Shown here: positions 1,242-41,285 of the stretch, one piece after another
Layout: every line of letters begins with the position of its first letter
Position numbering within the stretch: position 1 is the stretch's first letter
Source: Burkholderiales bacterium
GTDB taxonomy: Bacteria; Pseudomonadota; Gammaproteobacteria; Burkholderiales; SG8-41
Assembly (NCBI GenBank): GCA_022841375.1
Contig: JALHRQ010000016.1
Coordinates: 2,166 to 66,165, forward strand
Reading direction: 5' to 3'
DNA: 64,000 nt
The notes under the pieces: generated by a model
What the model was told of the DNA's origin: nothing
What the model saw: only the letters and a program-made list of their open reading frames with translations
The model's database searches: none
Program-made: the position numbers and the translations under genes

Positions 1242-1304
1242 GTGCATTCTCCAGTTCAGCCGGTTATTCCGGAACGGCTTCCGGAGCAGCAATCGTGCCA
1301 TTCA

Positions 1305-4194: not shown

Positions 4195-4225
4195 CGCGGC
4201 CGCAAGGCACCGCGTGCGTTAAAAT

Positions 4226-4253
4226 ACGGGGCCTTATCGCCCCGTAATTTTTT
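4226..4253 (+). terminator. Rho-independent terminator candidate after the Bug gene
   Basis: The stem ACGGGG/CCCCGT (4226-4231 / 4240-4245) encloses the loop CCTTATCG and is followed by AATTTTTT. It lies between stop 4194 and the next start at 4283. Confidence 0.6.
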
Positions 4254-4282
4254 CGTATTTTCTGACTACACCCGAGATTCCG

Positions 4283-9004: not shown

Positions 9005-9008
9005 TTTT

Positions 9009-9755: not shown

Positions 9756-9759
9756 CGAT

Positions 9760-13402: not shown

Positions 13403-13577
13403 CACGACCGGTCTTTTAAGGGGAAAACTTGTATTCGGAGGAATACCGGCATTGTGGTGAGTGCCGCAGTCCGGCGCAAGCCGGGTTTTCACGATGCGGT
13501 CTTGCGGGACCGTCGACCAAAAATTGGCAACTTATTCCGCAACTCCGGAATGTCTGCGATAACACCCTGCCGCACCG

Positions 13578-13614: not shown

Positions 13615-14310
13615 ATGGTCGCCACCGTCAAAACCATTCCGCTGCTCAGCGAGCGCGCCTACGACCGCGTGAAACATGACATCATCTGCTGTCTGTTCAC
13701 GCCGGGAAGCGAAATCTCCGAAGCCCGGTTATGCGCCCAGTACAAACTGGGCAAAGCGCCTGTGCGCATGGCGCTGTCACGACTGGCTCATGACGGCCTG
13801 GTGCGCGCGATTCCTCGGCGCGGCTACATGGTCACCCCGGTCACGCTGAAAGACATCCAGGACGTTTTCGAATTGCGGTTGCTGCTCGAACCGCCCGCCG
13901 CCCGGCTGGCCGCAGGCCGTGTTGACGCCAAGCGGCTGCGCCTGCTCGATGAAATCTGCCGCGCCGGCTACCAGTCGGATGAGCCGAAAAGCATCGTACG
14001 TTTTCTCGAAGCCAACAAGGAATTCCATGTCGCGATTGCACAAGCTGCCGGCAATGCCCGCCTCGTGCACTCTATCGATCAACTGCTCGACGAAATGACC
14101 CGGCTGCTGCATCTGGGTCTCGGCGTACGCAACCGCTCCCAGGAAATGCAGCACGAACACCGCACGCTGCTGCGCGCACTGGTGCGCGGCGACGGCGCGA
14201 CAGCTGAACAGATCTGCCGCGAACAGATTGAAGCCGCCCGCGACATGGTGCTTAAAGCCATCATGAACAGCAACGCCGTGATGAATTTTGCGCTCACTGC
14301 CGACGCCTGA
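13615..14310 (+). CDS. GntR-family transcriptional regulator (FadR/FCD subfamily)
   Basis: 231 aa. The N-terminal wHTH region is YDRVKHDIICCLFTPGSEISEARLCAQYKLGKAPVRMALSRLAHDGLV. The C-terminus is all-helical and FCD-like. Confidence 0.85.
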   Translation: MVATVKTIPLLSERAYDRVKHDIICCLFTPGSEISEARLCAQYKLGKAPVRMALSRLAHDGLVRAIPRRGYMVTPVTLKDIQDVFELRLLLEPPAARLAAGRVDAKRLRLLDEICRAGYQSDEPKSIVRFLEANKEFHVAIAQAAGNARLVHSIDQLLDEMTRLLHLGLGVRNRSQEMQHEHRTLLRALVRGDGATAEQICREQIEAARDMVLKAIMNSNAVMNFALTADA

Positions 14311-14312
14311 TC

Positions 14313-14813
14313 ATGCAAGCACCGCTACAACGACTGGTTAATCGTCTTGACGCCGCAGTTGCCGCCCCGCATGAAGAATTGCCGGACGCCGTCACTACCG
14401 CGCTGGGTGAAGCGCTCGCCGCCGGTGCCTGGCTGTCACCCGAACAACAGCGAGCGAGCCATGACCGTTACGCCCGGCACTTGGTTTATGCCGACCCCGG
14501 GAACCGTTACACCATTGTCTCGATAGCCTGGGGCAGCGGCCAGCAAAGTCCCATTCACGGCCACCACACCTGGTGCGGCCTCGCGGTCTACAGCGGGACC
14601 GTGGTCGAAACCTTTTACGAATCAGCCGGAAACAATGCCCCGCCCCGCGCGTTGCGCAGCCTGGTGCGGCAGCCCGGCACTCTCAGCTTCGATGTAGACC
14701 TTACCGGCGCGCACCGCATCGCCAATGCCGCGCCCGAAGTGGCTGTTTCCATCCATGTTTACGGTGTCGGCGGAGCACGCATCGCCACCGACGTCAATCG
14801 CGTTTTGGGTTAG
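14313..14813 (+). CDS. cysteine-dioxygenase-type (CDO/Mdo-like) cupin thiol dioxygenase family protein
   Basis: 166 aa. The cupin metal motif SPIHGHHTWCGLAVYSGTVVETFY and a distal His (TGAHRI) resemble bacterial CDO / 3-mercaptopropionate dioxygenase homologues. The gene starts 2 nt after the GntR stop. Confidence 0.6.
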   Translation: MQAPLQRLVNRLDAAVAAPHEELPDAVTTALGEALAAGAWLSPEQQRASHDRYARHLVYADPGNRYTIVSIAWGSGQQSPIHGHHTWCGLAVYSGTVVETFYESAGNNAPPRALRSLVRQPGTLSFDVDLTGAHRIANAAPEVAVSIHVYGVGGARIATDVNRVLG

Positions 14814-14913: not shown

Positions 14914-15918
14914 ATGAAAGCAGTCGTCCTTCGCGAACACGGCGGTCTCGACAAACTGGAATACGTGACCAACTTCCCCGATCCCACGGTCTGCGAAGGC
15001 CATGTCGTCATCCGGGTTAAAGCCACTTCGTTCAACTACCACGATGTTTTCACGGTTCGCGGCATGCCCGGCATCAAGGTGCCGTTCCCGATGATCATCG
15101 GCCTTGATCTGGCCGGCGAAATCCTCGAAGTCGGCCCCGGCGTCTCCGGCTGGAAAGCCGGGGACCGGGTGCTGGTCAACCCGCTGAACAAGAAAAAGGG
15201 CCTGATGGGTGAAATGATGCACGGCGGGCTCGCCGAGAAATGTCTGGTTTCCGCTGATCAGCTGATCAAGATGCCCGCCAACGTCAGTTTTGAGCAGGCC
15301 GCCTCGCTGCCGGTCGCTTACGGCACTGCGCATCGCATGATCATCACCCACAACACCATCAAGAAGGGCGACAAGGTGCTGGTGCTCGGTGCCAGCGGCG
15401 GCGTCGGCACCGGCTGCGTGCTGCTCGCCAAGATGCTGGGTGCGGAAGTCATTGCCTGCGCCTCCAGCGCGGACAAGATCCAGCGCCTCAAGGACCTCGG
15501 TGCCGACCATGTGATCAACTACAAGGAAACCGACTTCTCGAAATGGGCTGTCGAAAAATTCGGCAAACCGCAGCGCCGCAACTACGAAGGCGGTGTCGAT
15601 GTGGTCATCAACTTCACCGGCGGCGACACCTGGGCGCCTTCGCTGAAATGCGTCAAGCGTGGCGGCAAGATCCTGGTCTGCGGCGCCACCGCGGGCTACG
15701 ACCCCAAGGAAGACCTGCGCTACATCTGGAGCTTCGAACTGCAGGTCGTCGGCTCGAACAGCTTCTATGACGACAACCTGAAAGCGCTGATGGACCTGAT
15801 CCAGGAAGGCAAGATGAAGCCGGTAATCGACGAAGTGCTGCCGCTGGAAAAGGCCGCACAGGGCCTGAAGCTGATCGAAGACCGCGAAGTCTTCGGCAAA
15901 GTCATCATCACCCCCTGA
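14914..15918 (+). CDS. zinc-type alcohol dehydrogenase / quinone oxidoreductase (MDR superfamily)
   Basis: 334 aa with a GroES-like N-terminal domain and the Rossmann motif VLVLGASGGVGTGCVLLAKMLGAEV. Confidence 0.85.
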   Translation: MKAVVLREHGGLDKLEYVTNFPDPTVCEGHVVIRVKATSFNYHDVFTVRGMPGIKVPFPMIIGLDLAGEILEVGPGVSGWKAGDRVLVNPLNKKKGLMGEMMHGGLAEKCLVSADQLIKMPANVSFEQAASLPVAYGTAHRMIITHNTIKKGDKVLVLGASGGVGTGCVLLAKMLGAEVIACASSADKIQRLKDLGADHVINYKETDFSKWAVEKFGKPQRRNYEGGVDVVINFTGGDTWAPSLKCVKRGGKILVCGATAGYDPKEDLRYIWSFELQVVGSNSFYDDNLKALMDLIQEGKMKPVIDEVLPLEKAAQGLKLIEDREVFGKVIITP

Positions 15919-15928
15919 TCGGAAAGCC

Positions 15929-17473
15929 ATGGCTGTTCCCCGTCCTGAACCACGGGGTTACCCGGGCAATCTGGGGGCCCCGTTCAGCGCGCATGCCGGA
16001 AGCACACGCACCGCGCTGGTCGACTTGCGTAACCCCGGGTCAGCGCGGGAGCACAGCTTTGCCGCTCTTGATGCGCAGGCTGATGCCGTTGCGCGGGGCC
16101 TGATCCGTCGCGGTCTGAAAGCCGGGGACCGCATCTGCATCCTGTCGTTGAATCGCATCGAGTTCGTCACCACACTGCTCGGCGCAATGCGCGCCGGTAT
16201 GATTCCGGTGCCGGTCAACATCAAGCTGGCCGCCGAAACCGTAGGCTATATCGCCGGCGATGCCGGTGCAAAACTGGCGTTTTGCGAACCGGCCTACCGT
16301 CACCTGCTGCCGCCGGATCTACCGTACGTCAGCTTTGACGGCAGCACTTCGTTCGCGGACTTCCTCGACGCAGGCCCGTTCACACCGGTCGAACCCGGTC
16401 CCGATACCGTCGCCATCCAGCCCTACACCTCGGGTTCGACCGGCAAACCCAAAGGCGTGCTGCTCAGTCACTACGGCCAGAACTGGAGCCGCCGGATACT
16501 GGCGCACACCCGCGGCACCAGCGATCAGGATGTCATCCTTGTGGCGGCGCCGCTTTATCACAAGAATGCGTTGAACGCGATCAAGCAGGGCCTGACCGCC
16601 GGCGCGACATTGGTGCTGATGCCGCAGTTCAATGTCGAACACTACATTGCCGCCATCGCACGTTTTCACTGCACGGTAATTTCGGGCGTGCCGACGATGA
16701 TCTCGATGCTGCTCGCGCGCAAGGATCTGCTCGCGCATACCGACACCACTTCGGTACGCACCGTGATGATGGGTTCTGCACCGTCCTCCCCGCAGTTGCT
16801 GTCCGACATCCGCATACATTTTCCCAATGCCGAACCGCTGGTGGTCTACGGCGTCACCGAAGGCGGCCCGGTGCCGCTGGGGCCGCATCCTGACCACAAA
16901 CCCCGTCCGACGGGCTCCATTGGCGTACCCTATCCCGGCACCGAAGCGAAGCTTATCAACGGACCGAATGCCGACGAGGGTGAACTGCTGCTCAAAAATC
17001 CCGGCATCCTGCTTGGCTACCACAACCTTCCGGACGAATCGGCAAAACGGCTGCAAGGCGGCTGGTATCACACCGGCGATGTGTGCCGTCGCGACGCCGA
17101 GGAGTTCTACTTTTTTGTCGGCCGCACCGACGACATGTTTGTTTGTGGCGGTGAAAACATCTTTCCCATCGAAGTGGAGCGCCTGCTGGAACGCCACCCG
17201 GCCGTGCATCAGGCCTGCGTGATGCCCTTCAGCCACGAGCTCAAAGGCCAGGTGCCGTATGCCTTCATCGTGCTGCGCAGCGGACACAACGCGACCGAGG
17301 ACGACATCCGCCAGTTCGCGCTGACCAATGGCCCGGTTTACCAGCACCCGCGGCGCGTGTTTTTCCTCGAACAGCTGCCGCTCGCCGGCACCAACAAGAT
17401 CGACCGTGAACGGCTGCGTGGCATTGTCGCAGCCGCCGGAAACAGTGTTGAGAAGAATTCATCAGCAGCCTGA
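15929..17473 (+). CDS. AMP-dependent synthetase/ligase (acyl-CoA or aryl-CoA ligase)
   Basis: 514 aa with the AMP-binding motif YTSGSTGKPKGV. Also present are YHTGD and the C-terminal GKIDRERL-type motif (NKIDRERL). Confidence 0.88.
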   Translation: MAVPRPEPRGYPGNLGAPFSAHAGSTRTALVDLRNPGSAREHSFAALDAQADAVARGLIRRGLKAGDRICILSLNRIEFVTTLLGAMRAGMIPVPVNIKLAAETVGYIAGDAGAKLAFCEPAYRHLLPPDLPYVSFDGSTSFADFLDAGPFTPVEPGPDTVAIQPYTSGSTGKPKGVLLSHYGQNWSRRILAHTRGTSDQDVILVAAPLYHKNALNAIKQGLTAGATLVLMPQFNVEHYIAAIARFHCTVISGVPTMISMLLARKDLLAHTDTTSVRTVMMGSAPSSPQLLSDIRIHFPNAEPLVVYGVTEGGPVPLGPHPDHKPRPTGSIGVPYPGTEAKLINGPNADEGELLLKNPGILLGYHNLPDESAKRLQGGWYHTGDVCRRDAEEFYFFVGRTDDMFVCGGENIFPIEVERLLERHPAVHQACVMPFSHELKGQVPYAFIVLRSGHNATEDDIRQFALTNGPVYQHPRRVFFLEQLPLAGTNKIDRERLRGIVAAAGNSVEKNSSAA

Positions 17474-17537
17474 TAATTTATAGGTTGCGCCCTGCCATCC
17501 AGTAGTCTTCAATCCAGAATCGAACCGGAGCCCCGTA

Positions 17538-17957
17538 ATGACCGACACCAAACTTTCCCTCGAACAACTGCAGAATCTGATCAGCCGCGGCCCGTTCAAT
17601 CAGTGGCTCAACTTCACCTTCCTTAAAGCCGATGACTCCGGCATCGAGGTCAAGGCGACCTGGCGCGAAGAATGGGTGGTCAACCCCGAGCGCAAATACA
17701 CCCATGGCGGCATCCTCGCGGCGATCGTCGACGTCGTTGCCGACTACGCGATTGCCGCGCAACTGGGCCGGCCGGTGCCAACCATCGACATCCGCGTCGA
17801 TTATCACAAAGCCGCCATGCCCGGCGACCTGACCGCCAAGGGCCGCGTCGTGCGCAGCGGCAGCCAGTATTCGACGGCGGAAGCCTATGTCTACGACAAA
17901 GACGGCGCGCTGGTCGCCAGCGGCCGTGGCACCTACTTCACCGCACCGCCGAAATAA
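17538..17957 (+). CDS. PaaI-family hotdog-fold thioesterase
   Basis: 139 aa. HGGILAAIVDVVADYA is the typical PaaI/4HBT class II catalytic region. GGAG ribosome-binding site lies upstream. Confidence 0.8.
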   Translation: MTDTKLSLEQLQNLISRGPFNQWLNFTFLKADDSGIEVKATWREEWVVNPERKYTHGGILAAIVDVVADYAIAAQLGRPVPTIDIRVDYHKAAMPGDLTAKGRVVRSGSQYSTAEAYVYDKDGALVASGRGTYFTAPPK

Positions 17958-17965
17958 GCCGATCA

Positions 17966-18778
17966 ATGCCCGAGGTTCTTGAAAACCGGATCCACGCCCG
18001 AGGCACCCCCCGCGCGCTGCGGCTCGACCTGCTGCTGCAGCGGGTCGCACTGGTCGGCATCATCCTTGGCGTGTGGTGGGTATTGGCGCTGGGGGTGCCG
18101 CACTACATCCTGCCCGGCCCGGTACGGGTATGGAATGCCTTGCAGCAGATTTCGTCCAATGGCGACCTGTGGAACAACCTCGGCATTACGCTCGGGCGCG
18201 TCGGCGCCGGTTTCATCCTCGCCACGGTGATCGGCCTGCCGCTGGGTATCCTGTTCGGCGCCAACCGCCGGCTCGGTGAATTCTTCGAGCCGATCATTCC
18301 CGTATTGAACACGGTGTCATCGGCGATCTGGGCGATTTTTGCAATCATCTGGTTCGGCGTTTCGAATGCCACCACGATCTTTGTCGTGTTCATGACCGCC
18401 ATGCCGCTGATCATCACCAACGTCTGGCAGGGCACGCGCACGGTCAACGCAGACTTCATTGAGCTGGCCCACGTGCTACGCATGCCGTCGTGGAAAGTGA
18501 TGGTCAAAATCTACCTGCCGACCATCCTGCCCTATTTCTTTTCGGGTGCGCGCCTCGCCTTCGGGTTTGGCTGGCGGGTGTCGCTGGTCGCCGAAACGCT
18601 GGGTTCCTCCAGCGGTGTAGGATACCGGCTGCGCCAGGCTGCCGATCTGATCCAGACCGATCAGGTGTTCGCCTGGACCCTGACCCTGGTGGTGATGATG
18701 GCCGCGCTCGAAATGGGCGTGCTGCGGCCGCTGGAAGACCACCTGTTCCGCTGGAAAAAGGAAGCCGAAAACCAATGA
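17966..18778 (+). CDS. ABC transporter permease, NitT/TauT (SsuC/TauC-like) family
   Basis: This is ORF 17672..18778 trimmed to ATG 17966 (MPEVLENR...). The upstream part overlaps the thioesterase gene and is Arg-rich junk. The BPD-transporter motif FGFGWRVSLVAE is present. Confidence 0.85.
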   Translation: MPEVLENRIHARGTPRALRLDLLLQRVALVGIILGVWWVLALGVPHYILPGPVRVWNALQQISSNGDLWNNLGITLGRVGAGFILATVIGLPLGILFGANRRLGEFFEPIIPVLNTVSSAIWAIFAIIWFGVSNATTIFVVFMTAMPLIITNVWQGTRTVNADFIELAHVLRMPSWKVMVKIYLPTILPYFFSGARLAFGFGWRVSLVAETLGSSSGVGYRLRQAADLIQTDQVFAWTLTLVVMMAALEMGVLRPLEDHLFRWKKEAENQ

Positions 18779-19404
18779 GCGCCTCCCGCAGCAGCAAGCC
18801 CCCCCGCCGCCTGATCGTGGCGATGACCGGCGCCTCCGGCTCGGTCTACGGCATCCGCATCCTCGAACGCCTGCGCGAGATCGGCGGCTGGGAAACCCAT
18901 CTCGTCGTGTCAGAAGCGGGTGTGCTCAACGCATTCCAGGAATACGGCATGGACCGCAAGGCGCTGCACAAACTCGCCGACGTCACCCACAACGTGCGCG
19001 ACATTGGCGCCACCATCGCCAGCGGCTCCTTCATCACCGCCGGCATGGTCATCGCGCCGTGCTCGATGAAAACCCTGGCCGGTGTCGCTCATGCTTTTGC
19101 CGACAACCTGATCACCCGCGCTGCAGATGTGATCCTCAAAGAAAGGCGCCGGCTGGTGCTGATCACCCGCGAGACGCCGCTGAACCTCGCCCACATCCGC
19201 AACATGGAAGTGGTGACGCTCATGGGCGGGGTGATTTTCCCGCCGGTACCGGCGTTTTACAGCGGCGGAAAAACCGTCGACGATCTGGTCAACCACTCCG
19301 TAGGCCGCGTGCTTGACCTGTTTGATGTCGAACACAACACCATCCCGCGCTGGACCGGCGTCACCGGCCCAGCCGAACTGAAAGACAAAAAGAAAAGCCA
19401 ATGA
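18775..19404 (+). CDS. ubiX: UbiX-family flavin prenyltransferase
   Basis: This is ORF 18490..19404 trimmed to ATG 18775, which overlaps the permease stop as ATGA. The sequence has RRLIVAMTGASGSVYGIRILERL and VIAPCSMKTLAGVAHAFADNLITRAADV. Confidence 0.88.
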   Translation: MSASRSSKPPRRLIVAMTGASGSVYGIRILERLREIGGWETHLVVSEAGVLNAFQEYGMDRKALHKLADVTHNVRDIGATIASGSFITAGMVIAPCSMKTLAGVAHAFADNLITRAADVILKERRRLVLITRETPLNLAHIRNMEVVTLMGGVIFPPVPAFYSGGKTVDDLVNHSVGRVLDLFDVEHNTIPRWTGVTGPAELKDKKKSQ

Positions 19405-21023
19405 AAGCCCTGCCTTACGCCAACGAAAACTTTCGCGGTTTCCTCGACCGCTTGCGCGGCGAAAAAGAACTCGTCGACATCAAACAGCCGGTGGACAGCC
19501 GGCATATCGCCACGCTCGTCGACCAGGCCGACAAGGCGCTGCTGTTCCACAACGTCATCGGTTACAAGATGCCGGTGGTTTCGGGCATCATCCGCTCGCA
19601 GAAACGCGCCATCATGTCGATGGGCTGCGAAACCTATCCGGAAATCGAATTCCGGCTGGAGCGCGGCATTGAAAATCCGATCCCGCCGCGTTACGTCGAG
19701 AACACACCGCTGAAACAGGTCATCAAAACCGGCAAGGACGTCGACCTGTTCAGCCTGCCGATCCCCATGTTCTCGATTTACGACGGCGGCCCGATGATCA
19801 CCGCCGGCATCACCATCGCCCGTGACCCCGAATACGGCCTGAACTCCGGTATCTATCGCTTCATGGTCAAGGAAAAAAACCTGACCGGCATCGACATCGT
19901 CACCCCGAATAACATGCGCCTGTTTGCGCAGCGCGCCTTCGAAGCCGGCAAACCGCTGCCGATCTCGATCTCCATCGGCAACCATCCCTTTGAAAACCTC
20001 GGCTCCGGATTCCGCGCGCCGCTGGGCACCGATGAAATGGGTATCGCCGGCGGCATCCGCGGCGCAGCGATCGAACTGGCGCAGTGCGAAACCATAGATC
20101 TGCCGTGCATCGCCGACTCCGAAATTGTCCTTGAAGGCGAAATCCTGCCGACCGGCTGGACCCAGCCCGAAGGCCGTTTCGGCGAATTCACCCGGCTGAT
20201 GGGCGGCCTGCACTGGAACCCCGTGGTACGCATTAATGCCATCACCATGCGCCGCGATGCGATCTACTACGCGCTGCACATGCCCTGGGAAAACACCTGG
20301 CTGATGGCGCCGACGCGTTACACGCAGATTCGCCGTGCATTAAAAACAGCGGGGGTGCAGGTCAAGGACATCAACGTCACGCTCGGCGGCTGCGGCATGT
20401 GGCACGCAGTGATCTCGATCAAGAAGCAGGCCGGCGAAGGCAAAAACGCACTGCTCGCCGCGCTGTCGGTGATGGATCTGAAACATGTGGTGGTGGTTGA
20501 CGACGACATCGACGTGTTCAATGCGATGGATGTCGAATGGGCCATCGCCACCCGCGTGCAGGGTGACAAGGACATCATGATCATCCCCGGCAGCCGCGCC
20601 AAGCCGCTGGACCCCAGCCTCGCGGTAATGCCGCCTGGCGTGGTGCCCACCGGCGCCAAGGTCGGCATCGACGCGACGATCTCCGAAGGCATTCCGCGCG
20701 AGCGTTTCGAACGCATTGCCTACGCCTATACCGACCGCGCGAAAATCAGTGATTACTACGCCGGCAAGGCCGATGATGTGCAGCAGGCCGTATCGGGTGA
20801 TGCCGCGGTCGACGAACTGGCGGCAAAAATCATCGTCGTCATTGAAAAAGTGCCGAAATATTATTCGGAGCTCGCCGAACAGTTCGCCGAATATGATTTC
20901 CAGACTGTTGCGCGCACGCTGGGCAAGCTGCATGAAGACGGCAAGCTTTGGCAAGACCCGCGCGGCCGCATGTGCCTGCGCAACTCCGCATTCGCCGCCA
21001 AACCGCCGGTCAAGGGCCCTTGA
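19401..21023 (+). CDS. UbiD-family (prFMN-dependent) decarboxylase with a roughly 70-aa C-terminal extension
   Basis: 540 aa. The UbiD-like core is recognisable (NFRGFLDRLRGEKELVDIKQPVD..., GPMITAGITIARDPE..., FGEFTRLMGG). The start overlaps the ubiX stop (ATGA at 19401-19404). Confidence 0.85.
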   Translation: MKALPYANENFRGFLDRLRGEKELVDIKQPVDSRHIATLVDQADKALLFHNVIGYKMPVVSGIIRSQKRAIMSMGCETYPEIEFRLERGIENPIPPRYVENTPLKQVIKTGKDVDLFSLPIPMFSIYDGGPMITAGITIARDPEYGLNSGIYRFMVKEKNLTGIDIVTPNNMRLFAQRAFEAGKPLPISISIGNHPFENLGSGFRAPLGTDEMGIAGGIRGAAIELAQCETIDLPCIADSEIVLEGEILPTGWTQPEGRFGEFTRLMGGLHWNPVVRINAITMRRDAIYYALHMPWENTWLMAPTRYTQIRRALKTAGVQVKDINVTLGGCGMWHAVISIKKQAGEGKNALLAALSVMDLKHVVVVDDDIDVFNAMDVEWAIATRVQGDKDIMIIPGSRAKPLDPSLAVMPPGVVPTGAKVGIDATISEGIPRERFERIAYAYTDRAKISDYYAGKADDVQQAVSGDAAVDELAAKIIVVIEKVPKYYSELAEQFAEYDFQTVARTLGKLHEDGKLWQDPRGRMCLRNSAFAAKPPVKGP

Positions 21024-21024
21024 G

Positions 21025-21810
21025 ATGAACACCGCGGTCGCGTCACAGACTGTTCCGGTGGAAACCGGCGCCATTGCGGTTCGCGGCGTCAGCAAGTGGT
21101 TCAAAACCGCCGACGGTTCGCCGCTGCAGGTGCTGGCCGACATCGAGCTGACGATACCGGCACATTCGATGGTCGCCATCCTCGGGGCCTCCGGCTGCGG
21201 CAAATCGACGCTGCTTAATATCATCTCCGGACTGGTCACGCCTGAACAGGGTGAAGTGCTGATCAATGGCACGCCCTCACGGCAATTCAGCGACTGGCGC
21301 AGCGTCAGCTACATGTTCCAGGAAGACCGCCTGCTGCCGTGGCGCACCACGTTGCACAATGTCGAGTTCGCACTGGAAGCCGGATCCATTCCGCACTCCG
21401 AGCGTCAGGCACGCGCGCGTGAAGCCTTGCGACTGGTCGGGCTTGAAACTTTTGAGGATGCATTTCCGTACCAACTGTCCGGCGGCATGCGCAGCCGCGT
21501 CGCCCTCGCCCGCAGCCTGGTACTGGAGCCGTGCATCCTGTTGATGGATGAACCGTTCTCGCGACTCGATGCACTGACCCGCGCGCAAATGCATGATGAA
21601 CTGCTGCGCATCCAGCAACTCAAGCACATGACCATCGTTTTTGTCACCCACGACGTCGAAGAGGCCGTGGTGCTGGCCGATACCGTGGTGGTCATGGCGC
21701 CGCGTCCCGGACGCATCCGCGATCAGGTACCGATCGCCTTGTCTCGGCCGCGCGATGCCACTGAAGCCGCCACCGCACGCCTGGCACATCAGCTTAAGTC
21801 ATTGATTTAA
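21025..21810 (+). CDS. ABC transporter ATP-binding protein (NitT/TauT family)
   Basis: This is ORF 20716..21810 trimmed to ATG 21025, which lies 1 nt after the UbiD stop. Motifs are Walker A GASGCGKST, signature LSGGMRSRVALAR and Walker B ILLMDEPF. Confidence 0.88.
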   Translation: MNTAVASQTVPVETGAIAVRGVSKWFKTADGSPLQVLADIELTIPAHSMVAILGASGCGKSTLLNIISGLVTPEQGEVLINGTPSRQFSDWRSVSYMFQEDRLLPWRTTLHNVEFALEAGSIPHSERQARAREALRLVGLETFEDAFPYQLSGGMRSRVALARSLVLEPCILLMDEPFSRLDALTRAQMHDELLRIQQLKHMTIVFVTHDVEEAVVLADTVVVMAPRPGRIRDQVPIALSRPRDATEAATARLAHQLKSLI

Positions 21811-21832
21811 TAATATTTAAAAAGGAGCTGCG

Positions 21833-22816
21833 ATGAAACCGATGCACCTGTTCAAGGCCTTTGCTCTCGCCCTGCTGCTCGTCACCGCACCGGCACAGGC
21901 ACAGAAAATCAAGGTCGGTTACTGGACCAGCGGCTTCAGCCTCGGCTTCGGCGCGGTGATGGAACAGATGAAATTCGCCGAAAAGGAAGGACTCGATGTC
22001 GAATGGGTGAAATTCGCTGAAGTGAACGGCCCGACCCGCGCCATCGTGCCGCAAACCATCGACCTCGCCTTCGGCGCGCCCTCCACCGCTTCGATGAGCA
22101 TCGCCGCCGACGGCGTGCCCGTAAAAATCGTGCTGGCCTCGCAGATCGCCGAAGCACAGATCGTCGTGCCCGCCGGTTCCCCGATCAAAAGCATTGCCGA
22201 CCTCAAAGGCAAAAAAATCGGCATGTCGCCGCCGGGCAGCGCGACGCACGCCATCGCCACATCAATACTGCAGGGCGTCTACGGCCTGAAAACCGGCGAC
22301 TACAGCGTCGTGCCCGGCAACGAAGGCCGCCTCGCCCAGTTCTTGCTGCAGAAAGAAGTCGATGCCGCGGTCATCCGCTCGGTGACCATCGCCCAGATGA
22401 GCGATGACCTCAAACTGACTTACCTCGGCAGCGTTGTCGACGACTGGAAAAAACTCACCAAGGTCAACGCAGCGCCGATACTCGCGGTCACCATCGTGCA
22501 CAGCGATTACGTGGCCAAAAACGCCGAGTCGGTCGCCAAATTCATCGCCGCGATGCGCAAGACGCTGGAATACGGATCGAAGAACAAGGACCGCGTCGCC
22601 GAAATGCTGCAAAAAGCAGCCAATATGAATGCCGTCGACGCCAAGGCTTACGCCGCGCAGTGGGACGGCGCCTATATGGCCAGTTTCGAGGCCTCCGATG
22701 TGTCGTCGCTGAAACGCATGCAGGAAATCGTCAAAGCCGCCGGTGCCGCCAAAAGCGATCCGCCAGAAGCCACCTTCCTGACCGGACCGTACCAGCGCGC
22801 CAAGCAGATCAAATAA
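21833..22816 (+). CDS. ABC transporter periplasmic substrate-binding protein (NMT1/SsuA/TauA-like)
   Basis: 327 aa with a signal peptide (MKPMHLFKAFALALLLVTAPAQA) followed by QKIKVGYWTSG... AGGAG ribosome-binding site lies upstream. Confidence 0.8.
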   Translation: MKPMHLFKAFALALLLVTAPAQAQKIKVGYWTSGFSLGFGAVMEQMKFAEKEGLDVEWVKFAEVNGPTRAIVPQTIDLAFGAPSTASMSIAADGVPVKIVLASQIAEAQIVVPAGSPIKSIADLKGKKIGMSPPGSATHAIATSILQGVYGLKTGDYSVVPGNEGRLAQFLLQKEVDAAVIRSVTIAQMSDDLKLTYLGSVVDDWKKLTKVNAAPILAVTIVHSDYVAKNAESVAKFIAAMRKTLEYGSKNKDRVAEMLQKAANMNAVDAKAYAAQWDGAYMASFEASDVSSLKRMQEIVKAAGAAKSDPPEATFLTGPYQRAKQIK

Positions 22817-22841
22817 TCCGCTGCGTGATATCGATCAAAAG

Positions 22842-23837
22842 ATGTCGATCAAAAAACTGCATCTGCATATCGAGAATACGCGCAACAAGGCGAGCATATT
22901 TCACACGCTGCCCGCGCACTGGGCAGCCGCCTGCGCGCGCCACCGCGCGCTGGCGCGCAAGATCGACGTCAGCTTCGGCTGGGATGGCGACGTACTGGAA
23001 ACCGCGCTGACCAATGCCGACCTGCTGATCGGCGTACCCGCCAAACTCGATAACCTCGCCGCCCGCGCGCCGCGGCTGAAATGGATGCACGCCACTTCCG
23101 CGGGTGTCGACGCCGTGCTGCCGCTGGACTGGCTGCCGCGCGGTGTGTTCTTCACCAACAACAGCGGCGCGCACGGGCACAAAACCGGGCAATACATGAC
23201 CATGGCCTACAACCTGCTCAACTCGCGCATGCCGGCGATCATGGCCAACCAGCACCGGCATCGCTGGGAAGCGCTGTTCTCGCCGAGCATCACCGGCAAG
23301 ACCGCGGTCGTCATAGGACTCGGTGATCTCGGCGAAGCCGCCGCACGTGCCGCAAAAAAAATCGGTCTCAAGGTCATTGGCGTTCGGCGCAGCCCACAGA
23401 AGAACCGTTACGCCGACAAGGTCGTCAGCTACAAAAAACTCGACAAGATGCTGCCGCTCGCTGATTTTGTCGTACTAGCCGTGCCACTGACCGCGGAAAC
23501 ACGCGGTCTGCTCAACAGCAAACGCATGGACCTGATGAAACCCACTGCCGGCGTGATCAATATCGCCCGCGGTCCGGTTGCCGACTACAAGGCACTTGAA
23601 GCGCGCCTGCGCGCCGGGAAACTCGGGGGCGCGATTCTGGATGTGGTTGACCCTGAACCCTTGCCCGCCAATGCCTCGTTGTGGACAACACCCAATCTGA
23701 TCATCACGCCGCATATTTCCTGTGACGACGGCGAACATTACATCGACATTTCACTTGACCTCTGGTTTGAGAATCTGCAACGTTTCCTCGCCGGCAAAAC
23801 GCTGAAACGGCGCATCGACCCGAAGCTGGGTTACTGA
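22842..23837 (+). CDS. D-isomer-specific 2-hydroxyacid dehydrogenase family protein
   Basis: 331 aa. The NAD-binding motif is GKTAVVIGLGDLGEAAARAAKKIGLKV. The catalytic region is NIARGPV...TPHIS. Confidence 0.82.
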   Translation: MSIKKLHLHIENTRNKASIFHTLPAHWAAACARHRALARKIDVSFGWDGDVLETALTNADLLIGVPAKLDNLAARAPRLKWMHATSAGVDAVLPLDWLPRGVFFTNNSGAHGHKTGQYMTMAYNLLNSRMPAIMANQHRHRWEALFSPSITGKTAVVIGLGDLGEAAARAAKKIGLKVIGVRRSPQKNRYADKVVSYKKLDKMLPLADFVVLAVPLTAETRGLLNSKRMDLMKPTAGVINIARGPVADYKALEARLRAGKLGGAILDVVDPEPLPANASLWTTPNLIITPHISCDDGEHYIDISLDLWFENLQRFLAGKTLKRRIDPKLGY

Positions 23838-23840
23838 GCC

Positions 23841-24818
23841 ATGACCGCCGCCGGCCCGATCTCCGCTTCGCAACCCCCATCCACGGGCAAGCTCAACATC
23901 GATCATCTGGCGCACTTCGTGCCGCATATCGATGCTGCGAGTTCCGCCCTCGACCAGGCTGGCTTCACGCTGACGCCGTTCTCCGCGCAATCGCATCGCC
24001 TGGAATCAGGCGGCCCGCTGGTACCCGCGGGCAGCGGCAACCGCTGCGTGATGCTGCGCGAAGGTTATCTGGAATTCCTCACCCCGACTGCGGACACCCC
24101 CATCGCCCAACAGTTGCGTACGGCGATCCAGCGTTACACCGGTCTGCATCTGATCGCCTTCGGCACCGCCGATGCGGAAGCCGATCATGCACGCCTCGAA
24201 AAAAACGGCTTCAATCCGCTGCCAACCGTTGCGTTGCAACGTGAAATCGGCACCGAGCATGGCGATGAAACTGCGCGCTTCTCCGTTGTTCGGGTACCAC
24301 CGGGCACGATGGCCGAAGGCCGCATCCAGTATTGCCAGCAGCACACCCCGCAATGGCTGTGGCAGGAGCGCTGGACCCGGCATGCCAACGGTGCACGCGG
24401 CCTTGCCGCGGTAATTCTTTGTGTCGCCGATCCCCAGGAAGCCGCACAGCGCTACGCACGATTCTCCGGCCTGCTCGCACAACTGGCGCACGGTCAATGG
24501 CGCATCGACACCCAGCGTGGCGCGCTGCTGTTCGTAACAACGGATCAACTGCGGCAGGCACTGGATGTCACCGTACCGGCACTGCCGTGGATTGCGGGTT
24601 ATGTATTGACCGTCGACAACATCGCGACAACCCGCACCCGGATTGTTGCCGGAAATTGCAGCGTACGTGAAATTGAAGGCGGGCGATTGCTGCTCGAATG
24701 GCCCAATGCAGTCGGTGGCTTCATCGTGTTTCAGGCGGCCGGGGCAGCGCTGCCCGCCTTTGCGTACATACAACCATTTGTTTTTATTGAGAAAAATGAA
24801 ATACACGGAAACCGTTGA
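23841..24818 (+). CDS. glyoxalase-like (VOC-superfamily) domain protein
   Basis: 325 aa. LNIDHLAHFVPHIDAASSALDQAGFTLTPFS...GSGNRCVMLREGYLEFLTP resembles the Glyoxalase-like domain family. Confidence 0.55.
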   Translation: MTAAGPISASQPPSTGKLNIDHLAHFVPHIDAASSALDQAGFTLTPFSAQSHRLESGGPLVPAGSGNRCVMLREGYLEFLTPTADTPIAQQLRTAIQRYTGLHLIAFGTADAEADHARLEKNGFNPLPTVALQREIGTEHGDETARFSVVRVPPGTMAEGRIQYCQQHTPQWLWQERWTRHANGARGLAAVILCVADPQEAAQRYARFSGLLAQLAHGQWRIDTQRGALLFVTTDQLRQALDVTVPALPWIAGYVLTVDNIATTRTRIVAGNCSVREIEGGRLLLEWPNAVGGFIVFQAAGAALPAFAYIQPFVFIEKNEIHGNR

Positions 24819-26361
24819 TGTCGTGGTGCTGGGTTTTGGTCTGGGTGGCGGCATCGCCGCGCTGAACGCCGCACAAGCCGGCGCCAAAACCCTGCTGCTG
24901 GAAAAATCCACGGTCCCCGGCGGATTGTCGATCTGCTCCTATGGCGCGGTGCGCAGTGCACATGATCCCGAACAGGCTTTCGCCTACCTGCAGACAAGCA
25001 ATGGCGGGCGCACACCGAACGATGTGATCCGCACACTGGCCAATGGCATGTGCGAGCTCGAAAGCTATGTCCGTGAGCTGGCGCAGATCAACGACGCCCG
25101 CGTCATTACTTCCGTGGAAGAAAACGCTGAACGTGAAAAAGCCGGAGATCCCTATCGCCGTCAGATCCGCGGCAACTACCCGCTCCCCGGCACCGACACC
25201 TTCTATCACACGTCCGTTGTCGACGTGCCCGGCTTTGATGCGCGCAAAGACTATCCCTGGGCTAATGGCGCGCCCAACGGCCCGAAACTGTTCAAGGTCG
25301 TTCACGACAACGTCGTCGCTGCCGGCGTCGACATCCGCCTGGGTGTCGGCGCGCAGCGCCTGATCACCGATCCATTAACCCGCGAAGTCATCGGCGTCAC
25401 CGTATTGCAGGACGGCGAGGAGCGCCACATTGCCGCGCGACGCGGCGTGATCATCGCCACCGGCGGCTTCGAAGGCAATGCCGACATGAAAGCGCAGTTC
25501 CTCGAAACACACCCGGTGTTCAACGCCGCCGCACGCCACAATACCGGCGACGGCATCCGCATGGCGCAGGATCTTGGCGCAGCGTTATGGCATATGTGGC
25601 ACATCCATGGCGCCTACGGTTTCCGCCATACCGATCCAGCTTATCCCTACGGCATCCGTGCCAAACGCTTTCCCGACTGGTTTCCCGGGGATGCTGACAA
25701 GGTCAACCTGAAAATGGCGTGGATCCTGCTGGATCACGGCGGCCAGCGCTTCATGTCCGAATACCAGCCCTACACCCAGGACACCGGCGTGCGCCCTTTG
25801 TCGCACTTCGATCCGATCACGCAAAAAGCCTCACGCAACCCGGCCTACCTGATCTGCGACGAAATCGGCCGCCAGATGTATCCGCTGGGCAAGGCCACCT
25901 CCAACGACGAGGGCCTGCGCTATGACTGGAGCGACAACAATTTGCGGGAAGTGGAAAACGGCATCATCAAACGCGCCGACACGCTGGGCGAACTGGCAAA
26001 AAAGCTGGGGCTCGATGCGAGCGCGGTAAAAACTTCGGTCGCACGCTGGAATGCATTGTGTGCCGCGGGCAAGGATACCGATTTCGAACGCCCCGCAGGC
26101 AGCATGCTGCCCATTGTCAAACCACCGTTCTACGGCTCAACGATGTGGGCAGTGATTTCCAATACCCAGGGTGGCCCGGTGCACGATGTGCAGTCGCGCA
26201 TAATCGATGTTTACGGCAAACCGGTTCCGCGGCTTTACGCCGCCGGCGAATGCGGCAGCTCCTTCGGCCACCTGTATCTGTCGGGTGGCAATATTGCGGA
26301 GTGCGTGGTCACCGGGCGCATTGCAGGACGCGGCGCGGCGGCACAGACCCCGCTGAACTGA
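24796..26361 (+). CDS. FAD-dependent oxidoreductase (fumarate-reductase/KstD-like flavoprotein)
   Basis: This is ORF 24643..26361 trimmed to ATG 24796 (MKYTETVDVVVLGFGLGGGIAALNAAQAG, a dinucleotide-binding motif). The C-terminal motif is RLYAAGECGSSFGHLYLSGGNIAECVVTGRIAG. It overlaps the previous CDS by 23 nt. Confidence 0.82.
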   Translation: MKYTETVDVVVLGFGLGGGIAALNAAQAGAKTLLLEKSTVPGGLSICSYGAVRSAHDPEQAFAYLQTSNGGRTPNDVIRTLANGMCELESYVRELAQINDARVITSVEENAEREKAGDPYRRQIRGNYPLPGTDTFYHTSVVDVPGFDARKDYPWANGAPNGPKLFKVVHDNVVAAGVDIRLGVGAQRLITDPLTREVIGVTVLQDGEERHIAARRGVIIATGGFEGNADMKAQFLETHPVFNAAARHNTGDGIRMAQDLGAALWHMWHIHGAYGFRHTDPAYPYGIRAKRFPDWFPGDADKVNLKMAWILLDHGGQRFMSEYQPYTQDTGVRPLSHFDPITQKASRNPAYLICDEIGRQMYPLGKATSNDEGLRYDWSDNNLREVENGIIKRADTLGELAKKLGLDASAVKTSVARWNALCAAGKDTDFERPAGSMLPIVKPPFYGSTMWAVISNTQGGPVHDVQSRIIDVYGKPVPRLYAAGECGSSFGHLYLSGGNIAECVVTGRIAGRGAAAQTPLN

Positions 26362-26373: not shown

Positions 26374-26919
26374 TCAGCCGGCGGCGTCGTGCAAGGAAAA
26401 AGCGATGGTGCAGGGCGCGTCAGAACGGTTGCTCCAGGCATGATTGGTGCCACGCTGCACGACGGTATCACCTGCTTTCAGGCTGACCTCCTGCGTATCC
26501 AGCACCAGCGTGATCTCCCCTTCCAGCACCAGACAGAAATCCAAGGTGCGTGTTCTCTGCATATACGGATGCGGAGCGCCTGAACCCCCGGTTGAAGCCT
26601 GCGGAGATCCCATAGACTCAAAAAAAGCCTGCACCTCGCGCGCACCGACTCTGGGGGCGCCACGTTCGGGCGGGAACGTCACCACGCGGCACACCGAACC
26701 GCCGGGCGGCGGCTCCAGCGTATGCGGTAGATGCACAGTCTCGGTAATTGACCCGATGCGCGCCGGGGTACGGTCAGTAACCCAGATCCGTGTCGCCCGG
26801 TATCCGGGCCGGGCCGGATCGCTGCGCACATCGGGGGATGGGCCATCGGCGATTTTTTTCGATTGGCCGTTCCCGTCATCCACAGTGATCAGGCGCCGTA
26901 CGGGTTTTGCTGTTTGCAT
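26374..26919 (-). CDS. cupin domain protein
   Basis: 181 aa with C-terminal GDTVVQRGTNHAWSNRSDAPCTIAF. The N-terminus KPVRRLITVDDGNGQS is paralogous to the neighbouring gene. Confidence 0.75.
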   Translation of the reverse strand: MQTAKPVRRLITVDDGNGQSKKIADGPSPDVRSDPARPGYRATRIWVTDRTPARIGSITETVHLPHTLEPPPGGSVCRVVTFPPERGAPRVGAREVQAFFESMGSPQASTGGSGAPHPYMQRTRTLDFCLVLEGEITLVLDTQEVSLKAGDTVVQRGTNHAWSNRSDAPCTIAFSLHDAAG

Positions 26920-26930
26920 GCGCGTTACCT

Positions 26931-27491
26931 TCAGTCCTTGTAGCGTGCACCCATCATGACGAAAGCCATCAGGCTGCCGTCGCGAGGATTGGTCCAGCCA
27001 TGCCAGTTGCCGAGCTGCACCACCACGTCTCCGGGATGCATCACATGTTCGCCGTCATCGAGCAACAGCACGCGTTCGCCCTGCAGCATGATGCCGTAGT
27101 CGACCGTTTCGGATTTATGCACCGGGGATGAATAGGCATTGGCGCCGCCCTTGTCCCAGGTGCCGCCATGGCGCTGTTTCGGTTCATGCAGCGGAATCGC
27201 GGTTTTGTCATCCTCGGGCTTGTAACCGGCGGGTTTTCCCGGCGACTGCACGATTCGCAGATGACCGCCTGCTTCAGGAGGCTCGAAGCTGAATGGCAGA
27301 TTGCCATCGTCGCGTTCGCCGGAAATCGGCGCCGGACACTGCTGATACACCCAGACATCGGTCATGCAGGTGCCGGGTCGGATGGCTCCGGGATTGACGT
27401 TGGGCGAATCACTGTCATAAAGCACACGCGAGCGGCCCTGCGCATCATTGCCGGTAACCACCCGGCGTATCGGTTTGATCCGGTTAGTCAT
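26931..27491 (-). CDS. cupin domain protein (tandem paralogue)
   Basis: This is ORF 26931..27512 trimmed to ATG 27491, which has AGGAG 7 nt upstream. Sequence features are KPIRRVVTGNDAQGRS... and PGDVVVQLGNWHGWTNPRDGSLMAFV. Confidence 0.75.
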   Translation of the reverse strand: MTNRIKPIRRVVTGNDAQGRSRVLYDSDSPNVNPGAIRPGTCMTDVWVYQQCPAPISGERDDGNLPFSFEPPEAGGHLRIVQSPGKPAGYKPEDDKTAIPLHEPKQRHGGTWDKGGANAYSSPVHKSETVDYGIMLQGERVLLLDDGEHVMHPGDVVVQLGNWHGWTNPRDGSLMAFVMMGARYKD

Positions 27492-27504
27492 TGCCTCACT
27501 CCTG

Positions 27505-28482
27505 TCATGCACCCTCCGCCTGCAGCCCCAGTTGCTTGATCAGTTTGCCCATGCGCTCGATCTCGGAGCGCACGATGGCGGCCGACTGCTCCGGCGTGGT
27601 GCCGAAAATCTCGGCACCTTCACCCTCCAGACGCGCTTTCACGTCGGCTTGCTGCAGCACCTTGACCAGTTCCTGATGCAGGCGTGCAACGATTGCCGGC
27701 GGGGTCGCGCCCGGCACCAGAATCATGTGGCCGCCGACCTCATCGAGCCCGGACACGCCCGATTCGGCAATCGTCGGCACATCGGGCCAGATACGCGACC
27801 GCTTCGATCCGCTGATGGCAAGGGCGCGCAAGCGGGCGGCTTTGATCAGCGGCACGCTGGCGATCATGTTGGCGAGCTGGAATTGCACCTGCCCCGCCAC
27901 GAGATCGGCCATCGCCGGACCCGCGCCTTTGTACGCAATGTGCACCGCGGTCATGCCGGTAGCTGCCTTCAGTACTTCGGTTGCCAGATGCGGCCCCGTG
28001 CCGGCGCCTCCCGAGGAATAGTTAAGCTGACCAGGCCTTCTCTTGTCGAGCGCAACCAGATCCTTCAGGTTGCGCACCGGCAGCGCCGGGTGCACCACCA
28101 GGGCATATGGCGCGCCAGCCAGAATGGATACTGGCCTCAGGTCTTTCAGGGCATCGTAAGGCAGCTTGGAGTAACGGCCGGCATTGATCGTGTAAGTCGC
28201 CACTGCCACCAGCAACATGTTGTAACCGTCCGCCGACGACTTGGCGGCGATATCGGTGCCGATGACCCCGCCAGCTCCGGCGCGATTTTCGACAAACACG
28301 GTCTGCTTCATGCTTTCCGTCAGCTGTTGCGCCATGCTGCGCGCAAGAATATCGCTGGGCCCGCCGGGCGCCAGCGGCACAATCAACCGGATCGGCCGTG
28401 CCGGGTAACCCTGTTGCGCCTGCGCGGGAGCCCATACGCCTGCAACTATCAGTGTTGCGAGGATAGCGAAGATGCGTTGCAT
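27505..28482 (-). CDS. Bug/TctC-family substrate-binding protein
   Basis: 325 aa with a signal peptide followed by GYPARPIRLIVPLAPGGPSDILAR. Confidence 0.88.
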   Translation of the reverse strand: MQRIFAILATLIVAGVWAPAQAQQGYPARPIRLIVPLAPGGPSDILARSMAQQLTESMKQTVFVENRAGAGGVIGTDIAAKSSADGYNMLLVAVATYTINAGRYSKLPYDALKDLRPVSILAGAPYALVVHPALPVRNLKDLVALDKRRPGQLNYSSGGAGTGPHLATEVLKAATGMTAVHIAYKGAGPAMADLVAGQVQFQLANMIASVPLIKAARLRALAISGSKRSRIWPDVPTIAESGVSGLDEVGGHMILVPGATPPAIVARLHQELVKVLQQADVKARLEGEGAEIFGTTPEQSAAIVRSEIERMGKLIKQLGLQAEGA

Positions 28483-28520
28483 GATTGTTACTCCTCCAGG
28501 TTGAACTGCTTTTTTCTTGC

Positions 28521-29606: not shown

Positions 29607-29779
29607 GATGCTCCTCCGTTTCCCGGACACCCCGGGGTTGATCAATCGATCCCGATTCCGGCCTCCCGGATCACCCGGGCCTGGCACTTGTTGTTCTTGC
29701 GCATAAATTTCCAAATGCCGCCGGCGAGTTGCCTGCCGGTATCGCTACCGCACTCTGATGAATCCCCGCAGGCATTGAT

Positions 29780-40269: not shown

Positions 40270-40272
40270 GAA

Positions 40273-41250: not shown

Positions 41251-41285
41251 ATTGTCATCCTCCTCGTCATTGAACCTGCAACGGA

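Follow-up and report, generated by a model that had tools for sequence, protein, structure and literature searches.

An HmfF-related UbiD decarboxylase interleaved with ABC importer genes in a conserved, putatively catabolic gene cluster of uncultured Burkholderiales

The subject of this report is a gene cluster on a 64,000-nucleotide stretch of DNA—the window—from a Burkholderiales bacterium (GTDB lineage SG8-41; GenBank assembly GCA_022841375.1, contig JALHRQ010000016.1, positions 2,166 to 66,165 of the forward strand), in which the genes for UbiX and for a UbiD-family decarboxylase dependent on prenylated flavin mononucleotide (prFMN) lie between the genes of an ATP-binding cassette (ABC) importer, alongside a coenzyme A (CoA) ligase, a thioesterase and several oxidoreductases. 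Genes were called from the listing of open reading frames (ORFs) together with Pfam and NCBIfam scans of the window, and junctions were read directly from the sequence. The cluster comprises the following features:

13615-14310, plus strand: GntR/FCD regulator, first gene of the array (Pfam GntR and FCD; syntenic in many relatives)
14313-14813, plus strand: small cupin, CDO_I-like (Pfam CDO_I, E 3e-7, a weak match at 30.6 bits where the cut-off is 23; syntenic in many relatives)
14914-15918, plus strand: MDR-superfamily NAD(P)H oxidoreductase, here MDR (Pfam ADH_N and ADH_zinc_N)
15929-17473, plus strand: AMP-forming acyl/aryl-CoA ligase (Pfam AMP-binding and AMP-binding_C)
17538-17957, plus strand: hotdog-fold (PaaI-type) thioesterase (Pfam 4HBT; NCBIfam TIGR00369 at 72 bits, cut-off 36.6)
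17966-18778, plus strand: ABC importer permease, NitT/TauT type (Pfam BPD_transp_1)
18775-19404, plus strand: UbiX flavin prenyltransferase, which makes prFMN (Pfam Flavoprotein; NCBIfam NF004685 at 269.5 bits, cut-off 188)
19401-21023, plus strand: UbiD-family prFMN decarboxylase, 540 aa (Pfam UbiD_N, UbiD and UbiD_C)
20763-21020, plus strand: C-terminal extension of UbiD, residues ~455-540, predicted to be winged-helix-like and conserved in the family
21025-21810, plus strand: ABC importer ATPase (Pfam ABC_tran)
21833-22816, plus strand: periplasmic substrate-binding protein (SBP) of the NMT1/SsuA fold (Pfam NMT1 and Phosphonate-bd; SsuA_fam below cut-off)
22842-23837, plus strand: D-isomer-specific 2-hydroxyacid dehydrogenase (2HADH; Pfam 2-Hacid_dh_C)
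23841-24818, plus strand: two-domain VOC protein (Pfam Glyoxalase_3)
24796-26361, plus strand: FAD_binding_2 flavoprotein of the fumarate reductase/KstD/urocanate reductase type (Pfam FAD_binding_2; syntenic in many relatives)

These thirteen genes form a co-directional array in which every gap is 100 nt or less. A preliminary description, drawn from the sequence without database searches, had listed the genes from MDR to the FAD oxidoreductase in this order, and every one of those calls is borne out by Pfam and NCBIfam; its extent of 14914-26361 holds for the genes that it named and falls short at the start, as the GntR/FCD regulator and the cupin (for which the NCBIfam scan gave zero matches) precede them from 13615 and are syntenic in relatives. 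Direct reading also agrees with the junctions described there: ATGA overlaps join permease to ubiX (18775-18778) and ubiX to ubiD (19401-19404), and a single nucleotide separates the UbiD stop codon (TGA, 21021-21023) from the ATPase start (ATG, 21025). The permease itself starts at 17966, 8 nt past the thioesterase stop. A scan for consensus promoters and terminators found no more sites than in shuffled sequence, so that nothing in it speaks against one or two long transcripts.

The decarboxylase scores above cut-off with all three UbiD domain models (UbiD_N, UbiD and UbiD_C at 40.5, 178.1 and 104 bits, respectively) and with the generic family model TIGR00148 of NCBIfam (310.9 bits, cut-off 244.85). 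Against the NCBIfam equivalog for the canonical ubiquinone enzyme, NF008175, it reaches 150 bits where the cut-off is 788, and E. coli UbiD from the PDB aligns with residues 94-427 only (E 1.7e-42); judged by these comparisons, a role in ubiquinone biosynthesis is excluded, in keeping with the preliminary description. The VdcC/AroY type (VdcBCD/LpdBCD) was also rejected: NF041204, whose cut-off is 650, gave 254 bits, and no VdcD-like small ORF is annotated in the array.

Among solved structures, the closest is HmfF (6h6v, E 6e-80), followed by AroY (6e-53), AnInD (7e-50), VdcC and UbiD (~1e-42) and Fdc1 (~1e-33 to 1e-35). The precedent offered in the preliminary description, namely phthaloyl-CoA decarboxylase (PCD) and isophthalyl-CoA decarboxylase (IPCD), is thus not the nearest one: PCD (8pmk/8oz5) scores 79.7 bits (E 1.7e-21), with ~36 distinct chains ranking higher, whereas free-acid decarboxylases score 150-270 bits. 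HmfF of Pelotomaculum thermopropionicum is 39% identical to the window UbiD (169/433 aligned residues) and UbiD homologues on Paraburkholderia and Cupriavidus plasmids are 33-35% identical; no UbiD with more than 39% identity was found on any plasmid of a cultured organism in the collection searched. On sequence, the window UbiD belongs to a distinct HmfF-related clade that is neither canonical UbiD nor near PCD.

Catalytic residues R153 (YRF) and E257-G-R-F-G-E262 align with ‘HRL’ and ‘EGPFGE’ in HmfF and this R/E/E set is invariant or at least 90% conserved within the family; as far as its sequence goes, the enzyme looks active. In HmfF, His296/297 is reported as the key to furan-type specificity (PMC7976604). 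That position (H296/H297) is occupied by N298 in the window UbiD, within the family-invariant motif PWENTW, and the pyrrole-2-carboxylate decarboxylase HudA also has Asn here; HmfF R304 is conserved as R306.

These residues bear on whether the locus encodes an ordinary HmfF/HmfG decarboxylase of furan-2,5-dicarboxylate (FDCA) that feeds a furoyl-CoA pathway. The window UbiD shares with HmfF (6h6v, P. thermopropionicum; the hmf cluster of Cupriavidus basilensis) its three UbiD domains and R/E/E network, and with the HmfF/HmfG pair a dedicated UbiX gene next door, a catabolic setting and a CoA ligase nearby. HmfF is its best solved relative, many family members have been auto-named ‘2,5-furandicarboxylate decarboxylase 1’ by JGI, a ligase and thioesterase could replace HmfD/HmfE and some hmf clusters have transporters of the tauABC type nearby (PMC8091172). 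Yet the identities are low, the furan-specificity His is an invariant Asn in the family, R331 is replaced by Met and the window UbiD has an extra C-terminal domain (~90 aa). The cluster also lacks hmfABCDE, its partners being MDR, VOC, 2HADH and the flavoprotein, and there is no furoyl-CoA dehydrogenase (hmfABC) in or near it, nor any subunit of the xanthine-dehydrogenase type in it or beside it, only XdhC and CoxG ~35-40 kb off. HmfF orthology was ruled out on the specificity residue, the identity and the missing hmfABCDE genes, and we regard an FDCA decarboxylase of this ordinary kind as very improbable.

The C-terminal extension (~90 residues, about 455-540) is conserved in the family and missing from HmfF. 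A full-length AlphaFold2 model was poor (mean predicted local confidence, pLDDT, of 62) except for the N-terminal part and this domain, in which residues 455-535 reached a pLDDT of 71-92 and were modelled as a long helix, helices 488-494 and 500-512 and a beta-hairpin—a fold that appears winged-helix-like in the prediction. A single-sequence model of the domain alone was unreliable (pLDDT 62) and a Pfam scan of it gave only weak, sub-threshold matches to HxlR and Crp. The motif GPxYFxELL...YRxxxxALxxLxxxGxLxxDxxGR is common to many long-form UbiDs (505-541 aa) that are just 31-57% identical to that of the window (P0121, P0124, P0132, P0133, P0137, P0139, P0149, P0152, P0158, P0160, P0175, P0179, P0238 and P0247). 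No account of a winged-helix-like C-terminal module in UbiD was found in the literature consulted for this cluster.

Homologues of the window UbiD run into thousands, the best 120 being 77-96% identical. A scan of one genome per species returned at least 549 relatives, of which the best 80 were surveyed for synteny by tblastn of the window proteins; all 80 loci come from uncultured Burkholderiales/Betaproteobacteria metagenome-assembled genomes from lakes, groundwater and soil, with no cultured isolate among them, and many of these genomes belong to the Lake Mendota and Swedish lake series. Across these 80 species-level genomes, the order GntR-cupin-MDR-ligase-thioesterase-(permease)-(UbiX)-UbiD-(ATPase-SBP)-2HADH-VOC-FAD recurs. 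MDR is the most conserved protein of the cluster (79-99% identical across relatives). The thioesterase is upstream of UbiD in all relatives with readable sequence on that side, with a gap of 23-118 nt in minimal variants, and a UbiX gene adjoins UbiD in 51 of 69. Where there is enough upstream sequence, the ligase is in the cluster in 39 of 48 relatives, as it is in the window, while ~9/48 retain UbiD, MDR and thioesterase with no ligase in the cluster, which leaves room for one elsewhere in the genome. Enough downstream sequence was available for 58 relatives, 57 of which have 2HADH and 49 VOC. In one locus (L004, 3083-6660), MDR is split from the ligase by PIN/PhdYeFM and HigB/HTH_3 toxin-antitoxin pairs, a TctC gene and a LysR gene; MDR is therefore separable from the rest of the cluster.

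The ABC genes were counted in those distinct related loci, 62 in all, that could be read on both flanks. The split order permease-(ubiX)-ubiD-ATPase-SBP is found in 31 of them, and wherever the ABC genes are present they are split; the remaining 31 lack all three genes, and a partial set occurs in none. Loci with and without the ABC genes are intermixed on a neighbour-joining tree of UbiD, the split order appearing in several UbiD clades. Moreover, several ABC-less loci carry permease remnants immediately upstream of ubiX. In L004 (8854-9360, and identically in L047) there is a 168-aa ORF in which permease residues 1-98 are joined in frame to residues 197-269 and the 4-nt overlap with ubiX is retained; L040 (9080-9346) keeps permease residues 181-269 at 80% identity, and L014 (9179-9385) and L023 (1668-1849) keep the last ~70 residues. 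Remnants of the ATPase or SBP were not found in ABC-less loci. These permease remnants and the intermixing on the tree make the split order the ancestral state, from which the pump later disappeared repeatedly.

That the 3′ end of the permease gene has survived suggests constraint on the permease/ubiX junction itself, which in turn supports the idea of translational coupling. The preliminary description had gone further, treating ubiX and ubiD as translationally locked into the transporter. The part of that claim concerning the permease/ubiX junction is strengthened by the ABC-less relatives that keep a permease 3′ end or a deleted permease ORF at ubiX; as a general rule it does not stand, since the overlaps are not family-wide and spacers of up to ~100-180 nt are seen at the permease/ubiX/ubiD/ATPase junctions of distant relatives.

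With one permease, one ATPase and one SBP of the NMT1/SsuA fold (Pfam BPD_transp_1, ABC_tran and NMT1), the importer has the composition of the NitT/TauT type. Its best NCBIfam neighbours are TauB/C, SsuA/C and NtrB, each below the equivalog cut-off, so membership of the NitT/TauT family is supported and a substrate is not; comparison of the SBP with solved structures found distant relatives only and gave no useful substrate hint.

The history of the importer is documented by cultured bacteria. Plasmids pMRAD01 of Methylobacterium radiotolerans JCM 2831 (at about 56.8-64 kb) and pSBC1_1 of Caballeronia sp. SBC1 carry the order GntR-ATPase-permease-SBP-MDR-PaaI thioesterase-VOC-adenylate-forming enzyme, with contiguous ABC genes and no UbiD. 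All eight genes are orthologous to those of the window, with the following identities to the window proteins:

MDR: 70-72% (up to 73% in the plasmid search)
permease: 66-68%
ATPase: 57-59%
thioesterase: 56-58%
SBP: 49-52%
ligase: 44-52%
GntR: 41-45%
VOC: 28%

Unlike the window cluster, this module has no UbiX, UbiD, 2HADH or FAD_binding_2 genes, and its neighbours are xanthine-dehydrogenase-family, amidohydrolase and 5-oxoprolinase-like genes. In Sodalis, Tistrella and Paenibacillus, MDR, ligase, VOC and thioesterase occur together with other transporters, often with an M20-type hydrolase nearby. Literature searches found no account of the function of the GntR/ABC/MDR/thioesterase/VOC/ligase module. 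By descent, the ABC importer thus goes with the MDR/thioesterase/VOC/ligase CoA module and not with UbiD, while UbiX/UbiD, 2HADH and the flavoprotein were added in the lineage of uncultured Burkholderiales. The preliminary description took the PCD and IPCD pathways to have no NitT/TauT-type ABC system. Near related pathways such a system is not without precedent: Burkholderia has a one-permease ABC importer for o-phthalate (PMC13040137), tauABC-type systems adjoin some hmf clusters (PMC8091172) and, in the present case, the ABC system is the old partner of the CoA module.

On pMRAD01 (L088, record 56.8-70.5 kb), the genes around the module encode a xanthine-dehydrogenase-family hydroxylase, an alpha/beta hydrolase, an amidohydrolase, MarR, PxpABC-like proteins and a Zn-dependent hydrolase, a set that is, by analogy, reminiscent of N-heterocycle (nicotinate-type) catabolism.

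The accessory enzymes have mostly generic relatives. In the PDB, the neighbours of MDR are 2eih (a Thermus ‘ADH’) and crotonyl-CoA reductases, and by sequence it is probably an enoyl/ene reductase. The best solved relatives of the ligase are 4-coumarate-CoA ligase and feruloyl-CoA synthetase (E ~1e-61 to 1e-57), and the best match of the thioesterase is an uncharacterised Bordetella protein (3e29, E 3e-41). For 2HADH the matches are 3hg7 and 5mh5, its nearest relatives being generic D-2-hydroxyacid/glyoxylate reductases. The VOC protein has only a marginal match to methylmalonyl-CoA epimerase, with no useful substrate hint; the invariant motifs DH, YLE and H-x-N are common to it and to the VOC proteins of the cultured organisms, and an alignment of conserved residues spoke neither for nor against an extradiol dioxygenase. 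PDB matches of the flavoprotein are 1d4c, 7p18 and 6t85, its nearest relatives are soluble fumarate reductases, KstD and urocanate reductase, and all its NCBIfam scores fall below cut-off.

These relationships recall an order of events in which UbiD would come last: after activation of the imported acid, reduction or rearrangement of the side chain takes place on CoA, the thioesterase frees a (hetero)aromatic or acrylic acid, UbiD decarboxylates it and the product goes on to the flavoprotein, 2HADH and VOC. The adjacency of thioesterase and UbiD, which is the most constant feature of the cluster, accords with such an order, as do the resemblance of the ligase to 4-coumarate-CoA ligase and of MDR to enoyl reductases. 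Vinylphenol reductase acts after a decarboxylase in lactobacilli, and the flavoprotein has a weak similarity to this enzyme, far below cut-off. All of these similarities, however, are generic; the module of cultured organisms is complete without UbiD and the ligase-less variants still have thioesterase and UbiD, so we find this order doubtful.

Beyond the array, the window and related loci contain further transporters and candidate catabolic genes. Divergent from the cluster on the minus strand, and syntenic with it in close relatives (for example L006-L018 and L055), are three tandem MFS transporter genes:

9760-10971, minus strand: MFS transporter (Pfam MFS_1)
10974-12191, minus strand: MFS transporter (Pfam MFS_1)
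12188-13492, minus strand: MFS transporter (Pfam MFS_1)

Also upstream of the cluster and divergent from it are two TauE/SafE-family permease genes (8261-9803, minus strand); a TauE gene occurs near the cluster again in nine related loci (such as L061, 546-1376). A convergent four-gene set at 26374-29714 (minus strand) encodes two Cupin_2 proteins, a TctC binding protein and an Amidohydro_2 protein of the ACMSD/LigW-type decarboxylase family; all four recur in L019 (83-93% identity) and the two cupins only in L055 (87-88%). Two gamma-glutamyltranspeptidase paralogues (1305-3023, minus strand, and 4283-5872, plus strand) are each accompanied by a TctC binding protein (267-5872), and a complete TctC-TctB-TctA tripartite transporter (38264-43132, minus strand) lies immediately downstream of two fumarylacetoacetate-hydrolase-family genes. 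At the window edge (61471-63745), a dienelactone hydrolase gene and the accessory genes for XdhC and CoxG give a hint of a molybdenum hydroxylase operon just past the edge.

A further idea raised by the transporters is that of a sulfonated substrate, an aromatic or aliphatic carboxylate taken up by a sulfonate-type ABC system with export of sulfite through TauE/SafE. In its favour, SsuA/TauABC are the families closest to the SBP, permease and ATPase, the TauE/SafE genes lie just upstream, TauE recurs near the cluster in the nine loci and the cupin is CDO-like. But every transporter score falls below the family cut-off, the TauE/SafE family of anion permeases is a broad one, the search for gene identities turned up no desulfonating enzyme and the nearby thiamine pyrophosphate enzyme resembles acetolactate synthase, Xsc not being among its 25 best NCBIfam matches. 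A sulfonated substrate is accordingly the least credible of the alternatives that we considered.

Clues to the substrate come from related loci. A Rieske alpha/beta pair is present in 22 of them, between UbiD (or SBP) and 2HADH (for example L055, 13483-15276, and L052, 11715-13997), with a RidA/YjgF gene ahead of the pair in L052-type loci. The alpha subunit matches terephthalate 1,2-dioxygenase (TPADO; E 1e-131) and salicylate 5-hydroxylase (1e-88), and is 47-50% identical to the TpaAa-type genes of R. jostii RHA1 and Burkholderiales homologues. TctC-family binding proteins flank many related loci, and the terephthalate receptor TphC is a member of this family (PMC13040137). FDCA, on which HmfF acts, is the furan analogue of terephthalate (PMC12064950). 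The likeness to the tph/tpa systems (TphA2A3/TpaAaAb, with uptake through TphC and a tripartite tricarboxylate transporter, TTT) therefore comprises the TPADO-like Rieske pair at related loci and the flanking TctC proteins, whereas the window has no Rieske genes and no TphB-type dehydrogenase was seen; the Rieske proteins are moreover less than 50% identical to TPADO, so the same substrate is not established. Because the TPADO-like pair, the TctC proteins and the kinship with HmfF point the same way in combination, our best guess, on circumstantial evidence, is a para-type aromatic or heteroaromatic dicarboxylate; as the preliminary description held, the substrate is not deducible from sequence alone.

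We tentatively propose, with a probability of about 0.4, that the cluster is an operon under GntR control for the catabolism of an imported (hetero)aromatic acid, in which UbiD would act on the free acid and the CoA module would follow. The operon would be built of two pieces. An old and widespread module—ABC importer, acyl-CoA ligase, MDR, VOC and thioesterase—would take up an acid, form its CoA thioester and reduce or rearrange it on CoA; to this the lineage would have added UbiX, the HmfF-related UbiD, the D-2-hydroxyacid dehydrogenase and the fumarate-reductase-like flavoprotein. Gene identities, synteny, the ancestry of the importer and the later loss of the pump are shown by the data above; the substrate class, order of steps and roles of the redox enzymes that we infer would be as follows. 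The acid, most likely a para-type dicarboxylate analogous to terephthalate, furan-2,5-dicarboxylate or pyridine-2,5-dicarboxylate, would enter via the ABC, MFS or TTT transporters; UbiX would make prFMN; UbiD would take one carboxyl off the free acid; and the mono-acid product would pass to CoA activation and the ligase/MDR/VOC/thioesterase module, the thioesterase serving in product release or CoA rescue. Interleaving of ubiX-ubiD within the ABC genes, with overlapping stops and starts, may tie synthesis of the decarboxylase to that of the transporter. Decarboxylation of the free acid is favoured because the nearest characterised UbiD relatives all act on free acids, and because UbiD occurs without the cluster ligase (~9/48 relatives) and the ligase module without UbiD in cultured bacteria.

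Several observations weigh against this proposal. No homologue of known function is closer than 39% identity. HmfF R331 corresponds to Met in the window UbiD (by manual count on the HmfF alignment), and a second carboxylate may for this reason bind differently. The ligase is cinnamate-type and MDR resembles enoyl-CoA reductases, so an acrylic side chain fits better than a simple benzoate. Rieske dioxygenase genes are absent from the entire 64-kb window, which makes the link to terephthalate-like compounds indirect; the scheme leaves the roles of 2HADH, VOC, cupin and flavoprotein unaccounted for, and the constant place of the thioesterase beside UbiD would fit a CoA-ester route as well.

Such a CoA-ester route would follow PCD/IPCD: the ligase first converts a dicarboxylate to its mono-CoA thioester, UbiD decarboxylates the aryl-CoA and the thioesterase or MDR follows, the para isomer implying a presumed terephthalyl-CoA decarboxylase. 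The cluster shares with the PCD/IPCD systems (8pmk/8oz5; Thauera, Aromatoleum and Syntrophorhabdus) a UbiD, a UbiX and a CoA-activating enzyme, with a diacid as likely substrate class; ligase, UbiX, UbiD and thioesterase are adjacent, the thioesterase constantly so, and the TPADO-like genes at related loci point to para-diacids. According to a 2026 review, a route of CoA activation and decarboxylation is presumed for terephthalate and none has yet been elucidated (PMC13040137). The known PCD/IPCD pathways are anaerobic, feed benzoyl-CoA reduction and use TAXI-TRAP or other transporters (PMC13040137), whereas no benzoyl-CoA pathway genes were seen within the window. The window UbiD is also distant from PCD in sequence (80 bits against the 150-270 of free-acid decarboxylases) and UbiD and ligase are separable across genomes, in the relatives without a cluster ligase on the one hand and the cultured bacteria with an orthologous ligase module and no UbiD on the other. 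A CoA-ester route is on balance unlikely, if still a serious competitor to decarboxylation of the free acid. Whether on the free acid or the CoA ester, it is a long shot that the UbiD clade with the winged-helix-like domain is the missing decarboxylase of terephthalate-type para-dicarboxylates.

In overall design, the cluster resembles the known catabolic UbiX/UbiD systems hmfFG, PCD/IPCD and vdcBCD, yet departs from each in the features specific to it. No account of it came up in literature searches on UbiD together with PaaI, CoA ligase and ABC transporters or on UbiD and terephthalate. What is new is a UbiD clade with an extra domain, its union with a widespread and unstudied CoA module and the conserved interleaving with importer genes. 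The permease remnants indicate that a translationally coupled junction can outlast its transporter. Part of the pathway is open to genetic testing, since cultured Methylobacterium and Caballeronia carry an orthologous CoA module and ABC importer.

UbiD enzymes are sought after as reversible carboxylases, and a clade near HmfF that is repeatedly linked to a TPADO-like enzyme is a reasonable place to search for activity on diacids of the plastic-monomer type. If it did contain a terephthalate-type decarboxylase, abundant uncultured Burkholderiales of freshwater and soil would gain an oxygen-independent first step in the use of terephthalate, or of analogues such as pyridine-2,5-dicarboxylate and benzene polycarboxylates; run in reverse, the reaction would offer a biocatalytic way from a mono-acid and CO2 to a polyester monomer. 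A conserved pathway of 10-13 genes that is so common in these bacteria is probably directed at some class of dissolved aromatic acids that is itself widespread.

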